A stretch of DNA of 64,000 bases from Escherichia coli (GTDB taxonomy: Bacteria > Pseudomonadota > Gammaproteobacteria > Enterobacterales > Enterobacteriaceae): assembly GCF_048403405.1 (NCBI RefSeq), contig NZ_CP183129.1. One strand, given 5' to 3'. Position numbers: made by a program. Below are positions 34,101-55,100 of the stretch, piece after piece. Positions within the stretch are counted from its first letter, which is position 1; each line of letters begins with the position of its first letter.

Positions 34101-37100
34101 TGAAATTTATCCCTTGTACGGGGCATAGTCGGATCTATTTGCTGCAAATGAAAGATGTGGCATTTGTCAGCAGTCGGATGAGCGGTGTCTACGTTACGAG
34201 TCACGAAGGGAAAGAGGGCTTTACCGAATTGACATTACGTACCCTGGAAAGTCGTACACCACTACTGCGCTGCCATCGTCAGTATCTGGTTAACCTCGCG
34301 CATTTACAGGAGATTCGTCTGGAAGATAACGGCCAGGCCGAGTTGATTTTGCGTAATGGCTTAACCGTGCCGGTCAGCCGCCGTTATCTGAAAAGCTTAA
34401 AAGAGGCGATTGGCCTGTAAAAGGCTGCTAAAATGGCTTTTTGCCTCATCAACACCTGAAGGCCTCATGCTAAGTAACGATATTCTGCGCAGCGTGCGCT
34501 ACATTTTGAAAGCCAATAATAATGACCTGGTGCGTATTCTGGCGCTGGGTAATGTCGAAGCCACCGCGGAACAGATCGCCGTCTGGCTACGTAAAGAAGA
34601 CGAAGAGGGTTTTCAGCGTTGTCCGGACATTGTTTTGTCGTCATTCCTCAATGGCCTGATTTATGAAAAACGCGGCAAGGATGAGTCTGCTCCGGCACTG
34701 GAGCCGGAACGTCGCATTAATAACAACATCGTGCTGAAAAAATTACGCATCGCGTTTTCGCTGAAAACCGATGATATTCTGGCGATCCTCACCGAACAGC
34801 AGTTCCGCGTTTCGATGCCGGAAATTACGGCGATGATGCGTGCACCGGATCATAAAAACTTCCGCGAATGCGGCGATCAATTTTTACGTTATTTTCTGCG
34901 TGGACTGGCAGCGCGCCAGCATGTGAAGAAAAGCTAAGACGGGTATGGCGGCCATGCAAAAACATGGCCGCCGACAGATTATTTCACTTCTTTAAAACCA
35001 GCGGCTTTCATCACCAGTTCCATTTGCGCCATAGTGATACCTTTTTTGGCATCTTCAGCAGAAACGTTGATTCCTGAAATACCCTGCAGGGCTTTGAAAT
35101 CCACTTTTTCCATATCGATAGTCACGTTTTCCTGCGCGTAGGTATCGGTATAGGTTAATTTTTCTTCAACACCCGCGATGTTTTTGTATTTGGCGCTTAA
35201 CGGCTCAAGTGTCTTGGCAGCATCTTCTTTGGTGGTTGCACCAATGGAGGCAAATTGAATTTTGGTTTCAGAAGATTGCTTAAGCACCTTGTCACCTTTG
35301 TAGACATAGGTAATGGCAATTTCAGTACCGTTCAGATTGGCGCTGAATTTTTTCGATTCTTCTTTGTCACCGCAGCCAGCAAGAGAGAAAACCAGAACAG
35401 ATGCAACAACGAGGGAAAACAGCTTATTGAAAGCCTTCATGTAAAACTCCATTTTATTTAATCAAGAAACTGGTGACTCTCACCAGGGGCTATATAGGAT
35501 ATGCCTAATACCGTGGCGTGAGCAGTCCGGAACTGGAGTGGAACTCTTAGTAAAAAGCACTATTTCATCCTTGTTGCTGAAGCATGGGGAATAATTGTTC
35601 GCAAAGCAAAACACCGTTATTCATTGCTTCTACCCGTGCCTCGCTTTCTGTATTACGAAATTGTGCCAACACATGTGCCAGCCGATAAAAACCGACCGCG
35701 GTGAGGTCATTCGCCAGCAACTCTGCCTGACCAATAGCACTCTGTTCCTGATAGCGCCAGCCGTTATGGAGCAGTTGAATAAGTAACGCCTGGCAGCGCA
35801 TCAGCAACTGATGAGCGGTAGACGGCACAGGCAAAACGCTGGCAGAAGGTAGCGGTGCCACAGGCGCAGTTTCTGCGTCCAGCGCCCAGGCGCGGGTTTT
35901 TGTCATCATCACCCGTGGTTCCAGTGTCAATTGCCCCTCTACAAAGCTGACAAAGCCAGAAACCAGACTCACGGGGTCGTCTGTTTGTTGCAAAAGCGCC
36001 GCCATGCGTTCAACGGCATAAGGCGCGCTGGCTGAGGCTGGCAGTGATAACGTCAGCAGATTATCTTCACCTTCGCCGCTGATTACCTGCGCATCCAGCG
36101 TCTGGCGGCTGCTATCCCAACCGAGCGAAATACACTCAGCGACCGGCAGAATAAATAAGTTATCGACCTGATTAAGAGGCCGTATGCAGGCGGGAGGACG
36201 CTGGCGTAAATATTCCCGCAAAGCCACAATGCCCGGCTGGCGCAATGGCGCGCTCAACATTTGCCAGGCATCAGGCGACAGCGGCACAACGCTGCTTAAG
36301 CGGTTGCGGGTAGCTAACAGCAGCTCGCCATCGGCACTGCGTTTTGCTGCTTGTGAAACAATTTGCCCGCCCGCCAGTGCGCCAGCCTGAAAACTAAACA
36401 GCCGACGCGTAGCTGCCGGTGAGTTTTCCTGTTCACTTCGCGGCCAACTGCGCGAAAGGTGCAAAATACTGCCGGTGTCGGGATCGGTAAACCAGATGCG
36501 TAAACCATAATGCTCAATATCCTGCCAGCAACGCATACCTAAAGACACCAGCCGCAGATGATCAAGCTTTGCTTCTCCGGCAATGCCAGCGCCAACGACC
36601 GTGCGCCACGGCACAGGAGGAACTTCACCAACACTGTCGCGCCGGGTCATCTCTTGTGCGCAATTTAATCGACTGTTTAATGCCGCAAGCTGACGTAAGC
36701 ATTCTCCGGCATAATAGTGGCTGGCGCGGGCGTGGAAGGCATCAACGCTGGCGCGCAGTTGCCGTAGCGATTCACTCACCCATCGCCAGTTGCAGCGTTC
36801 CGCCGCCTGCTGCGCGCGGCTGAAAGCGGCCTCGTAGTGAATAAGCGGCTGGCTGATGCCGCTCAGCCATAATGCCTGGCTTAGTTGTTGAACATATTGA
36901 CGACACGTTTTGCCTTCTTCGCTGGCAAACGGATCGTCAGATGATGTGACGTGTTCGCTGCGCATCTGCCAGATTAAATGAGTCAATTCCGCTTGCTGCG
37001 CTTTTGCCTGGACAAAGGCCTGTACTGCCAGTACGACATGTTCGCAAAGTGTGCCTTCAATACAATCACAGCGTGCGAAGCGAATGCTGCTGCGGGAATA

Positions 37101-52100: not shown

Positions 52101-55100
52101 GGCGGCGGCATGGCGCGGGTTATTTGCCAGCCAATTAATGGCATCCTTGTAAGCCATTTTTTTCTGTAATCGCTGCGCCATTGGTAAGGCTAGTTCACTG
52201 GCCCCAATAAAGAGGGTGAATATCCACAGTCGTTGATGATCTCGTTGCAAGCAGGTCATAAACGCAGGAATGGCCGTACTACCAAAAACTGCCAGAATCT
52301 CTTTCTCACCTGAATATCGCTCCTCAATGATTATTTGGTTGAGAAATGAAATCGCCTGTTGTCCCGGTAAGTAACAAAGCGCAGATAGATTCCAGCTTTT
52401 GTTGGCATTGTTGTGATATTTCGCAAACTCAGCTTTTAGTGCTGGAAAATCAAAGCGCAACAAGGCATCAACAGCGCTTTGCGGTATATATTTTTTTTCA
52501 TGTAAGTCATCTTCGCAATGCAGCCATTCATTAAAACCTAATTGCCAAAGGATTTGTTGTTCTGGTGTAAAAGGAATGAAAGATGTCTCCCAGCTTTCTT
52601 TTTCAATTAGTGGCAGGTCGGTAAATAAGGTTTGCTGTGATGACTGATATTGCGCGATTTCACTGAATCTGGATATGTCAGTATGACTGATTAACTCTGT
52701 AATTCCTGGCGTGATGTCAGTGACTGCAGGGATGGGAAGCACCGGTAAATCAAATACGGGTATTACATTCGTTTTCTTATTTATTACCCACGGTGGAGCG
52801 ACAAACAGCTCCGGCAACATATCCGCAGTGGCGTATTCACATTCTTCAGCGACTAACTGAGTACGACATTCAGATAAGATGCCTGCCGCTTTAGCATTAA
52901 CCCAGGGAATGACGTCAGTGACTAAATCTGGCGTGGCGGTAATCAGTTTGACAAGCGCTTTACGCCACTGTGCATCTTCATGTATTGCCAGTAAAGTTGC
53001 ATAAGCGGCAAGAGCCGCAGCGGGATGTTTTTGACAGGCTTTGCTTAAGTATTCCAGGTGCTTTTTCTTGCCAATTACACCGAGGATCAGAATTTGAATC
53101 GCATCCGGGTGATTCGTTTTCCATAGCCATTTGACAAGATCTTCAGTCTCGCTGATGCGCTCGAAGAGATAAGTGGGATTGTCAGAATGCTCTTCCGTAA
53201 ACTCAAGAAGTATCCGGCTTACACCGCGCACCCCATTATTTGCCAGCAACATTGCCAGATAAGCGCGAAAATCATGATACAACGGTGGGAAGTCGTATTT
53301 TTCTGCTGTAGTCAGAGCGGCGTCATCGGTTACCACCAGTCTTAACCAGGTCATCGCCGGAACGTTTTGATCTGCATAACGTAGCGCCATAGCATTGGCA
53401 ATATCCGGGCGTTCAGGGAGCAGTAACGCCGCAAAAGGTTGCCGTGCTGGGGATAGCGAGGGAATAGCAGCGAGAACTTTATCTACACAGCGTTGCCACT
53501 CATCTTCTGAAGCGAGTGAAAGATGATGACATAGACGTTGATGCCAGTTCGGTAGTGATTCTGCTTTGAGATCAGGGGGAATAATGGTGGTGACGTCGGC
53601 TTTTACTGGTTTATATTTGAGTTGAAGAGCGAGAAGGGCGATTTCAACGGTAGTTTCCAGACCACAGCGAATGACTAAGTCATCGACCAGTTCATCTGTA
53701 GAGTAAGAGTTCCATAAATTCCAGAGCAATGCCGCATCAGATTGTATACTTCCTGTTTGTTGATTATTCAGAATTCGCCTTTGTAACTCGGCAAACGCCA
53801 GCTGCCAGTTTTCAGGATAAGAGCGGTAATTATTGTCGGGGTCATATGCCCTGGTGTTATTCGCGATGCGCTTCCATATTTGGCCATCTTTGTACAGATA
53901 ATTGATCTCTCTGGGGCGAGAGCGATGAGGAAAAGCAAATCGATTAATATCGCCAGTTACCGGAATGACTGCATCATCAGCCACCCATGGGCGTTTGTTT
54001 TTACTCTCAGGGGAGGTTTCAACTTCAGGAGTGGCTTTGGTGATGGGGGGGATATGCACGTTTGCTAAAGCATTTTCCACATAGCCTTTTTTCGTTTTCT
54101 CTGCGATCAGCTTAAGCTCCGCTTTTGCCGCTGCCGCAGCATCCGCAAAACTTTTTACCTGGTTTTGCCCTTTGGTGCCAACTTTTCCCCAACAGATATG
54201 CAACTCGTTTCCCTGTTGCTCCACCGCCCAGAATTTATGTGATTTTTCGTCCTGAAAGATAAAGTGCCTCATTCTGCATCCCTGTAATTTTATCCAGTTG
54301 AATGCTGATGCTACCAGTATTTATGCGGGTTAGAGAGAGACAAAATCGCAAGAAAACAACTTTAGGAATTTATAAAGAAAAGGCGCTGTCGATACAGCGC
54401 CTTGAAAGGAGATTATTTCACCTGATGACCCGGTTTAGCACCGGCATCCGGGCTTAGCAGGAAAATATCTTTCCCGCCAGGACCGGCAGCCATCACCATG
54501 CCTTCGGAGATACCGAAGCGCATTTTACGTGGTGCCAGGTTAGCCACCATAATGGTATGACGACCAATCAGTGCCTGCGGATCCGGGTAAGCAGAACGAA
54601 TGCCGGAGAAGACATTGCGCTTTTCACCGCCGAGATCCAGCGTCAGGCGCAGCAGTTTGTCAGAACCTTCAACAAACTCTGCGTTTTCGATCAACGCCAC
54701 GCGCAGGTCAACTTTGGCGAAGTCGTCAAAGGTGATGGTTTCCTGAATCGGATCATCTGCCAGTGGGCCAGTTACTGGCGTGGCAGCTGCTTTCACTTCT
54801 TCTTTAGACGCTTCCACCAGTGCTTCAACCTGCTTCATGTCAATACGGTTATACAGCGCCTTGAACGGATTCACTTTGTGGCCCAGCAGCGGTTGCTGGA
54901 TACCATGCCAGGTCAGTTCTGTATTGAGGAATGCTTCTGCACGCTCGGTCAGTTTCGGCAGTACCGGCTTCAGGTAAGTCATCAGCACGCGGAACAGGTT
55001 TATGCCCATCGAGCAAATTGCCTGCAGGTCGGCATCGCGTCCTTCCTGTTTCGCCACCACCCACGGAGCCTGTTCATCGACATAACGGTTAGCCAGATCT

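Follow-up and report, generated by a model that had tools for sequence, protein, structure and literature searches.

What holds together the eight co-directional genes that lie between metG and yehR in Escherichia coli, and what might they do together? We took up this question for a 64,000-nucleotide stretch of E. coli contig NZ_CP183129.1 (RefSeq assembly GCF_048403405.1), which is referred to here as the window. Gene models were taken from the list of open reading frames (ORFs) and from the RefSeq annotation of strain TUM1226, which is 100% identical over positions 35000 to 55000. Both sources agree with a preliminary description of the window in placing eight intact minus-strand ORFs in series from yehR to metG (35565-54272), with metG and apbC on one flank and yehR, yehS, and btsRS on the other. 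Three of these ORFs encode large DUF4132 proteins, namely YehI and two products given the working names MolR2 and Par3; the others are yehK, yehL, yehM, yehP, and yehQ (Table 1). Taken together, the data make it very probable that the paralog array and yehLMPQ constitute one functional unit, a conserved cassette of five components (DUF4132, YehL, YehM, YehP, and YehQ). We draw this conclusion because their adjacency is kept across phyla, in three gene orders, and from whichever anchor the search is begun.

The comparison was anchored on YehM. A profile scan of one genome per species retrieved at least 543 loci, the best 80 of which were analyzed with 10-kb flanks; gene content was scored by tblastn and by family hidden Markov models, and 76 of the 80 loci had enough flanking sequence. 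Homologs of YehM (DUF5682) extend well past the enteric bacteria, and the sampled taxa include Gamma- and Betaproteobacteria, Myxococcota, many actinobacterial genera, and a metagenome-assembled genome (MAG) of the Thermoanaerobaculia (Acidobacteria). At least one DUF4132 gene was found beside YehL-YehM-YehP-YehQ in 72/76 loci, mostly immediately upstream and co-directional. The YehL-YehM-YehP-YehQ order was kept in essentially all analyzed loci, with a yehP homolog following yehL and yehM in nearly all fetched loci whose contig reaches far enough, and the full one-strand order of DUF4132 (one to three copies)-YehL-YehM-YehP-YehQ was present in most of the 80 loci, spanning at least five phyla. 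Stop/start overlaps of 4 bp recur within these loci, including one between DUF4132 and YehL in Lentzea. Three gene orders are known, and both permuted orders retain all five parts: the DUF4132 gene follows YehQ in Burkholderia, while a conjugative plasmid of Sinorhizobium sp. RAC02 (locus L094, 971-20360) carries the order AAA / DUF5682 / DUF4132 / VWA / SWIM.

The association also holds in the reverse direction. Each of four yeh-type DUF4132 proteins picked blind to context (4/4) was encoded within 10 kb of AAA_5, DUF5682, and VWA_CoxE genes. In Serratia fonticola, genes for a WGR-DUF4132 protein, AAA_5, DUF5682, and VWA_CoxE proteins, and a 684-amino-acid protein lie on one strand at an unrelated chromosomal site. 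The metG-linked locus of Klebsiella grimontii comprises two DUF4132 genes and then yehLMPQ, without yehK. Because the cassette occupies the identical metG site in Klebsiella and Intestinirhabdus, the block is old within the lineage of E. coli, as had been proposed. The further proposal that the two gene sets act together is borne out by the same surveys: rather than being neighbors in E. coli alone, the sets are co-localized from Gammaproteobacteria to actinobacteria.

No additional member of the cassette emerged when approximately 2,000 flanking ORFs were clustered, as no further family was common beyond closely related genera and no candidate client enzyme was conserved. Two distinct cluster representatives (P0434 and P0435) are YehM-YehP fusions, with vWA portions that are 52 to 53% identical to YehP. 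A profile search with the DUF4132 core returned mainly fragments and close relatives; distant DUF4132 proteins, such as those of Deinococcus and Leptospira, may work without yehLMPQ. Individual loci are interrupted by other genes. In Chitinibacter (L030, 12527-13567), the YehM and YehP homologs are separated by an inserted ORF of 346 amino acids, and a similar gap of approximately 0.8 kb occurs in locus L033. A metagenomic locus (L090, 18883-20888) has two opposite-strand genes between DUF5682 and VWA, one of which encodes an AAA_15/AAA_21/SMC_N-type ATPase. OLD/ABC-like ATPases of this type are often seen in defense systems.

Within Escherichia, the array and yehLMPQ are separated by two features that are not cassette components. 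Spacers in the block were described beforehand as very short apart from one gap of 575 bp holding a toxin-antitoxin locus, and the measured values (-8 to 60 bp) agree: 12 bp for Par3/MolR2, 9 bp for MolR2/yehI, 60 bp for yehI/yehK, and 10 bp for yehL/yehM, with overlaps of 8 bp for yehM/yehP and 4 bp for yehP/yehQ. The 575-bp gap between yehK and yehL contains the OrzO RNA on the minus strand and the ZorO ORF on the plus strand. The minus-strand orientation given beforehand for the eight genes is correct and does not extend to zorO. Fozo et al. (2010; PMC2887945) reported the zor-orz locus at the yehI-yehL site and its absence from K-12. The locus in this strain shares with zorO-orzO of E. coli O157:H7 the position between yehI/yehK and yehL, the 29-amino-acid toxin ORF, and the OrzO RNA; strain EDL933 has a tandem pair, while a single copy is present here. 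We conclude that zor-orz is an insertion into the cassette and not part of it.

The other feature is yehK. Its homologs are restricted to Escherichia and Shigella, it has no Pfam domain, it was not matched by tblastn in the loci fetched from other genera, and it is AT-rich (GC content of 39.9%; GC content at third codon positions [GC3] of 35.5%). The preliminary description had grouped yehK with the paralogs, which is accurate for its position but not for its membership. Since yehK is Escherichia restricted and missing from all other loci, the functional unit consists of seven genes rather than eight. In Serratia and Klebsiella, the gap between DUF4132 and yehL is 59 to 77 bp, and in Lentzea these genes overlap by 4 bp. 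By these comparisons, the ancestral cassette was a single operon that was later split in Escherichia by the insertions of yehK and zor-orz. Two transcription units in present-day E. coli, as had been proposed, are plausible as a secondary state, since the OrzO terminator shares the strand of the yeh genes and the spacer has been reported to be bound by H-NS; chromatin immunoprecipitation and expression data placed H-NS in the intergenic region near yehL and yehM, and both genes were derepressed in hns/stpA mutants (PMC3686432). The 60-bp yehI-yehK spacer contains a GC-rich hairpin with an 8-bp stem (42997-43018), which could be a partial terminator or a repetitive extragenic palindromic (REP)-like element between the array and yehK. 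Elsewhere, a locus from an Azoarcus MAG (L034, 4295-5633) has an insert of approximately 1.5 kb between the YehM and YehP homologs that contains two small gene pairs, read from their sequences as BrnT/BrnA-like and HigB/HigA-like type II toxin-antitoxin modules. Together with zor-orz, this insert would mean that toxin-antitoxin genes entered the cassette twice, independently.

Table 1. Positions of genes and other sequence features of the metG-yehR block in the window
Feature	Position	Strand	Description	Basis
Terminator-like hairpin	35470..35486	-	3' of yehQ, end of block	Consensus scan, pattern match only
yehQ	35565..37565	-	666 amino acids; two N-terminal SWIM zinc fingers and a C-terminal region of ~480 amino acids	Pfam SWIM
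yehP	37562..38698	-	378 amino acids; CoxE-type vWA, complete MIDAS (metal ion-dependent adhesion site) motif	Pfam VWA_CoxE
yehM	38691..40970	-	759 amino acids; DUF5682; N-terminal TIKI/TraB/ChaN-like putative hydrolase domain and C-terminal HEAT-like helical domain	
yehL	40981..42069	-	362 amino acids; MoxR-type AAA+ ATPase (AAA_5), "YehL subfamily"	Pfam AAA_5
OrzO (OrzO-P)	42181..42256	-	Antitoxin small RNA	Rfam RF02083, 101.3 bits, E = 4.8e-16, gathering score 60
OrzO terminator	42186-42206	- (same strand as yeh genes)	Intrinsic terminator, hairpin and T-run	Terminator-like pattern in sequence
zorO	42502..42591	+	29-amino-acid hydrophobic type I toxin ORF, MDTLTQKLTVLIAVLELLVALLRLIDLLK	ORF list; locus in PMC2887945
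yehK	42645..42965	-	106-amino-acid orphan	RefSeq annotation
yehI	43026..46658	-	1,210-amino-acid DUF4132 protein without WGR domain	Pfam
MolR2 gene	46668..50462	-	1,264 amino acids; WGR and DUF4132; ortholog of the K-12 molR pseudogene	RefSeq name; K-12 alignment
Par3 gene	50475..54272	-	1,265 amino acids; WGR, alpha-solenoid, and DUF4132; paralog nearest metG	Pfam
SOS-box-like site	54280..54299	-	AACTGGATAAAATTACAGGG, CTG-N10-CAG	Direct sequence reading
metG terminator	54380-54403		Upstream of the Par3 SOS-box-like site	

The DUF4132 proteins are the variable part of the cassette. In Par3, Pfam places a WGR domain at residues 5 to 67 (PF05406; 1e-17) and DUF4132 at residues 999 to 1182 (PF13569; 9e-48); MolR2 is named "WGR and DUF4132" in RefSeq, and YehI matches DUF4132 but not WGR, which is also undetected in many actinobacterial copies. 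In overall architecture, a WGR domain (in Par3 and MolR2) is followed by a long alpha-solenoid and then by the alpha/beta DUF4132 domain at the C-terminus; the latter two are seen in the predicted structure of YehI (predicted local distance difference test score [pLDDT] of 87.4). When the family profile was compared with the Protein Data Bank (PDB), it matched the Bacteroides fragilis protein 2ra8 at 8e-21 and the WGR domain of PARP3 at 8e-4, and the PARP1 WGR domain is also related; the searches found no solved relative of the C-terminal DUF4132 domain. Par3 and MolR2 resemble WGR proteins (PARP1/2/3 and 2ra8) in their N-terminal ~70 residues and have no PARP catalytic domain. With identities of 47% and 34% between Par3 and the other two large proteins, the three are true but old paralogs. 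Full-length DUF4132 proteins are approximately 24 to 33% identical to sequences from other families or phyla. Their C-terminal 450 residues are 40 to 61% identical across phyla, and the N-terminal halves are very divergent.

The same division is apparent within the species. Compared with E. coli AZ162, the proteins YehL, YehP, YehM, and YehQ of this strain are 96 to 99% identical in amino acid sequence, with ratios of nonsynonymous to synonymous substitution rates (dN/dS) of 0.04 to 0.14; YehI, Par3, and MolR2 are 92%, 86%, and 76% identical, respectively (dN/dS, 0.16 to 0.24), and the flanking genes are 99 to 100% identical (dN/dS, ≤0.03). Most of the divergence falls in the N-terminal ~700 residues. 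In MolR2, these residues are 46 to 81% identical to the AZ162 allele and the remainder 93 to 97%, with a dS of 1.75 versus 0.24 and a GC3 of 41% versus 58% for the N- and C-terminal parts, respectively. This pattern points to old, compositionally distinct N-terminal modules that have been swapped by recombination onto a constant C-terminus. Across 5,426 complete E. coli genomes, the MolR2 N-terminal module of this strain is present in 3386/5426 (62%) and the C-terminal part in 5321/5426 (98%), and the body of Par3, which K-12 lacks, is present in 1629/5426 (30%), with 951 of these matching at just 80 to 90% nucleotide identity. The 5' ends of the Par3 and MolR2 genes are near-identical over ~200 bp of WGR-coding sequence (54076-54272 and 50266-50463), and in the K-12 molR pseudogene (L002, 16996-17193), this shared 5' end is joined to the MolR2 body. 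Recombination between these direct repeats thus looks like the source of the difference from the two-paralog state of K-12, either by deletion in K-12 or by duplication in this strain.

Copy number varies as well. At least two DUF4132 copies were present in 30/72 loci within the flank examined, and a neighbor-joining tree indicates independent tandem duplications in Enterobacteriaceae, Massilia, Rhodanobacteraceae, Chitinibacter, Lentzea, Actinomadura, and Glycomyces. The block had been called an island, a term that suits the varying paralog array and does not suit yehLMPQ, which is nearly core. Judged by GC content and GC3, the foreign-looking parts of the block are limited to yehK and the N-terminal modules of MolR2 and Par3. 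We considered recent transfer of yehLMPQ on the basis of its local GC content (54 to 55%) and rejected it, as the GC excess stems from amino acid composition and GC3 is ordinary.

The constant part of the cassette is centered on a MoxR-vWA pair. YehL matches Pfam AAA_5 at 2.6e-34 and belongs to the "YehL subfamily" of MoxR AAA+ ATPases named in PMC3893208. Among 72 sequences, the Walker A motif GEPGTAKS is invariant, and the motifs VRFEEITR, ATANTRD, and ALKRRF (Walker B, sensor-1, and RR) are invariant or nearly so; judged by these motifs, YehL is an intact MoxR AAA+ ATPase. Its closest solved sequences are the AAA modules of midasin (3e-10) and MoxR 2r44. In NCBIfam, YehL is most similar to GvpN and MadB, and the bpMoxR model gave a separate weak match (0.002). 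YehP matches VWA_CoxE at 6e-71, and its MIDAS residues (D222-Q-S224-G-S226, T281 within GGGT at 278 to 281, and D307) are at least 95% conserved in 72 sequences. Apart from the YehM-YehP fusions, YehP homologs in the fetched loci are uniformly ~365 to 400 residues long without added domains, and sequence and profile searches of the PDB returned no relative. YehQ matches Pfam SWIM at residues 56 to 88 (1e-3), with a second weak match at 160 to 183, and all of the 35 sequences compared retain C70, C72, C78, and H80. It has no PDB relative by sequence, and hhalign comparisons with DUF4132 and with YehM found no common domain. YehQ was undetectable in two of the Myxococcota loci (L045 and L052).

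YehM is the least recognizable component by sequence. No informative match was obtained to members of the TIKI/TraB/ChaN superfamily in Pfam, NCBIfam, or the PDB, and the first hint of a TIKI/TraB-type domain came from its conserved motifs. In the predicted structure, however, the N-terminal domain has the parallel beta-sheet core found in the TIKI/TraB/ChaN/erythromycin-esterase superfamily, and nine residues (G8, R10, H11, E35, R175, E176, G199, G200, and H202) are invariant in 41 cross-phylum sequences. In the model, H11, E35, and H202 each follow a beta-strand; the comparison covered their positions along the chain. By position, these residues would agree with the His-Glu scheme of catalysis laid out for the superfamily in PMC6254334, and YehM is a putative TIKI/TraB-fold hydrolase. 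The YehM domain differs from other members (TIKI, TraB, PrgY, ChaN, and erythromycin esterases, including the effectors RRSP and HopBA1) by a large helical insertion, by a fused HEAT-like domain of ~500 residues, and by having no detectable sequence match. The superfamily also includes noncatalytic binders, such as PMT and the heme-binding ChaN.

A LexA operator appears to front the array in this lineage. The site AACTGGATAAAATTACAGGG, reading from 54299 to 54280, ends 8 nucleotides 5' of the Par3 ATG and has one mismatch to the CTGT-N8-ACAG core. The same sequence lies upstream of molR in K-12, and a K-12 listing of genes under LexA control whose SOS box is known includes molR (PMC6590174). 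The preliminary description of the genes as uncharacterized therefore needs an exception for molR. At the matching position, K. grimontii and Intestinirhabdus alba have CTGG-N8-ACAG. LexA regulation is documented for molR by that listing; for the Par3 array, it is suggested by the operator match together with the molR entry. A search of the 64-kb window with the strict 20-mer LexA consensus gave no match at three or fewer mismatches. The sole perfect CTGT-N8-ACAG in the window is at 9011-9026, far outside the block, and the chance expectation for this pattern is 0.65 per window.

The cassette is also found on mobile elements. YehM relatives were located in 38 plasmid records, among them those of Rhizobium, Streptomyces, Agrobacterium, and Iodobacter. 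The mobilizable (MOBP) 76.8-kb plasmid pl1 of Iodobacter fluviatilis (L093, 85-19653) carries the whole cassette with two DUF4132 genes, flanked by the insertion sequences IS3, IS200, and IS630 and adjoining a type I restriction-modification system (hsdM, a PDDEXK nuclease gene, and hsdS); the SWIM gene of this plasmid is annotated as two ORFs. On the Sinorhizobium RAC02 plasmid, the cassette is preceded by small SMI1/KNR4, DUF1963, DUF6389, and YcxB genes, which resemble the immunity-protein arrays of polymorphic toxin systems. Phage carriage was assessed separately. When 50,697 phage records were searched by tblastn, no genuine relative of YehM emerged, and full-length matches with E values near 0 to PHROGs families (phrog_29006, 31592, 30700, 33984, 36295, 20839, 28101, and 36602) did not lead us to accept a phage origin, as these families are essentially the E. 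coli proteins themselves and were read as host genes from misdelimited prophages. Such families could mislead annotation pipelines.

Decay of the cassette is common. Both molR and yehQ are pseudogenes in K-12. In E. coli strain 143, an O157-like cattle isolate (L088, 2983-22810), yehQ is cut short by IS1203, an internal stop interrupts yehM, and the two upstream DUF4132 paralogs have become pseudogenes; its yehK-yehL spacer of ~1.2 kb is consistent with a tandem zor-orz pair. In a sublineage of sequence type 131 (ST131), the resistance transposon TnMB1860 has been reported in the DUF4132 region (PMC9334617).

The nearest described counterparts are the MoxR-vWA ternary conflict systems of Kaur et al. 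(2020; PMC7159879), which comprise VMAP, iSTAND, FtsH, and beta-propeller classes. Shared features are the pairing of MoxR with a CoxE-derived vWA/MIDAS protein, further conserved partners, a rapidly diversifying component, paralog expansion, and a patchy spread that is prominent in actinobacteria, myxobacteria, and proteobacteria. The diversifying component has its equivalent here in the N-terminal halves of the DUF4132 proteins and their recurrent lineage-specific duplications. The yeh partners differ, being DUF5682 (TIKI-like), double-SWIM, and WGR/DUF4132 proteins in place of any of the four third components; no Pfam or NCBIfam match to FtsH, STAND, or beta-propeller proteins was found among the cassette proteins. 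Moreover, YehP has no fused variable effector domains, the yeh architecture is nearly fixed, no link to multicellularity is evident, given the near-core status of the cassette in E. coli. PMC7159879 makes no mention of SWIM, WGR, YehL, DUF4132, or TraB. An NCBIfam scan of the eight proteins gave just weak generic ATPase, vWA, and WGR matches, and the literature that could be searched contains no description of the yeh/molR cassette as a system, only the YehL subfamily name, the LexA listing of molR, the H-NS data, and incidental mentions; DUF4132 is named in four papers, and two or more of yehL, yehP, and yehQ in one. The yeh cassette is thus a MoxR-vWA-centered multicomponent system with a new partner set that had not been described as such.

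The best overall explanation of these observations, to which we give slightly less than even confidence, is a conserved, mobile five-part cassette that works by the following mechanism. The DUF4132 proteins would serve as interchangeable recognition (sensor or adaptor) subunits, with the constant C-terminal ~450 to 550 residues docking onto an invariant YehLMPQ engine and the variable WGR and alpha-solenoid half binding a trigger or target, plausibly a DNA end, a lesion, or a foreign protein-DNA complex. As has been suggested for other MoxR-vWA pairs (PMC7159879), the MIDAS of YehP would grip an acidic peptide of a partner, and the YehL ring would spend ATP to remodel or release it. This remodeling step could gate or feed the His-Glu hydrolase site of YehM, and the SWIM fingers of YehQ may contribute to nucleic acid or partner recognition. 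The system would respond to DNA damage or invading DNA in the manner of conflict and defense systems rather than perform housekeeping. We lean toward conflict or surveillance because of the hypervariable receptors, constant engine, mobility, toxin-antitoxin and restriction-modification neighbors, H-NS silencing, and frequent loss. The tie to damaged or invading DNA is argued from the SOS box, which matches the one ahead of K-12 molR, from the kinship of the WGR domain with that of PARP, and from Deinococcus radiodurans, where depletion of the DNA damage repressor DdrO strongly induces one DUF4132 gene and one WGR gene (PMC8533742). This sensor-engine-hydrolase model and the conflict role attached to it are argued by analogy and remain tentative, somewhat short of an even chance. 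A more specific version is rather unlikely, namely, a widespread immune or surveillance system in which tandemly duplicated, hypervariable DUF4132 receptors for foreign or damaged DNA-protein structures license a MoxR-vWA switch that activates YehM as a TIKI-family protease, which would constitute a fifth MoxR-vWA conflict class, nearly core in E. coli and in part SOS controlled.

Several observations count against this explanation. A metagenomic operon (L096, 7883-14586) with AAA_5, a YehM-YehP fusion, and SWIM has no DUF4132 gene within 9 kb, and four Myxococcota loci (L043, L045, L052, and L081) encode YehL, YehM, and YehP but, over a complete upstream flank of 9 kb, have no adjacent DUF4132 gene. 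None of the PADLOC-DB 2.0 families matched any of the eight proteins at an E value of ≤0.01. Effector displacement, a hallmark of conflict systems according to Kaur et al. (PMC7159879), was not seen in the examined loci, where domain architecture hardly varies. The presence of yehLMPQ at a fixed chromosomal site in 5202/5426 complete E. coli genomes (96%) is unusual for defense islands. Every dN/dS is below 1; because dS is saturated, the N-terminal divergence reflects old alleles and recombination rather than demonstrable positive selection. Taxon-appropriate LexA boxes were sought upstream of all loci, and none was found in Serratia, Erwinia, Betaproteobacteria, or Actinobacteria. As the boxes are limited to metG-linked Enterobacteriaceae, SOS control is not family-wide. 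The docking role of the DUF4132 C-terminus is suggested by its pattern of conservation, and a role of these genes in defense, repair, or proteolysis is one that we infer from sequence, context, and literature.

One competing explanation is a chaperone for the assembly or maturation of a housekeeping enzyme or metal center, in the style of CoxD/CoxE (Mo-Cu center of CO dehydrogenase), NorQ/NorD, CbbQ/CbbO, or RavA/ViaA, with the DUF4132 proteins as scaffolds or substrates and the molybdate phenotype of molR as a reflection of the real function. These pairs and midasin (Rea1) have AAA_5/MoxR motifs and a co-encoded MIDAS vWA partner in common with the cassette, as the strong VWA_CoxE match of YehP and the AAA_5 and GvpN/MadB matches of YehL attest, and the characterized MoxR-vWA pairs in PMC3893208 and PMC7159879 are all maturation factors. 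The nearly core status of yehLMPQ in E. coli and its purifying selection would also be expected of such a chaperone, and molR was named after a defect in molybdate utilization, according to a reference cited in PMC8533742. However, that phenotype came from K-12, where molR is a pseudogene. The characterized pairs each serve a specific client, an enzyme or pre-ribosome whose genes usually lie close by, whereas no client gene is conserved beside the cassette in any lineage, and the cassette has three extra conserved components, one of them hypervariable. A maturation chaperone does not predict partners that are hypervariable, recombining, and variable in copy number, nor does it predict plasmid carriage beside restriction-modification genes, H-NS silencing, or frequent pseudogenes. 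We therefore regard it as quite unlikely. Repair or surveillance of DNA under SOS control and without a conflict role is likewise improbable. In that case, the WGR and SWIM domains would sense breaks or stalled complexes and the engine would extract or cleave proteins trapped on DNA, such as DNA-protein cross-links. The SOS box at the first paralog, the documented place of molR in the LexA regulon, the relationship of the WGR domain to those of PARP1 and PARP3, the SWIM fingers of YehQ, and the pairing of a putative hydrolase with an unfoldase-type ATPase are all in line with this proposal, as is the place of the Deinococcus DUF4132 and WGR genes in a radiation/desiccation regulon (PMC8533742). 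Yet conservation and a single copy, without hypervariable alleles, are the norm for repair factors. The SOS box does not extend past one enterobacterial lineage, WGR is undetected in YehI and many actinobacterial copies, and in E. coli, the same-strand terminator and the H-NS-bound spacer part the SOS-fronted array from yehLMPQ.

Two further explanations deny the cassette a present role or a common one. According to the first, the block is a decaying remnant with no present function in E. coli, its gene order kept by inertia. The K-12 pseudogenes, the multiply disrupted O157-like strain, the ST131 transposon insertion, and H-NS silencing could be read in this way, but selection and conservation data largely refute it and leave it very unlikely: all eight ORFs are intact in this strain, yehLMPQ is retained in nearly all complete genomes under a dN/dS of 0.04 to 0.14, the catalytic motifs are invariant across phyla, and gene order is conserved or, where reshuffled, all five parts are retained. 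The second holds that the array and yehLMPQ are unrelated and adjacent by chance in E. coli, where 575 bp, yehK, and a toxin-antitoxin locus lie between them and where they probably have separate promoters. The conserved neighborhood across phyla, its three gene orders, and its reciprocal recovery from either anchor refute this idea.

As a result, seven E. coli "y-genes," approximately 18 kb of nearly core sequence, can be treated as one system with a parts list and predicted catalytic residues, and a clear division between its variable and constant parts is now defined. The K-12 copy is crippled, with molR and yehQ as pseudogenes and Par3 absent, which may explain the lack of a phenotype so far. 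The hypervariable array beside metG offers a practical marker, given that an ST131 sublineage carries a resistance transposon there. If the chaperone explanation is true, a client complex not yet recognized would be implied. If the conflict reading is true, the cassette would represent a new MoxR-vWA class, and bacterial WGR and TIKI-fold domains would gain a new role.

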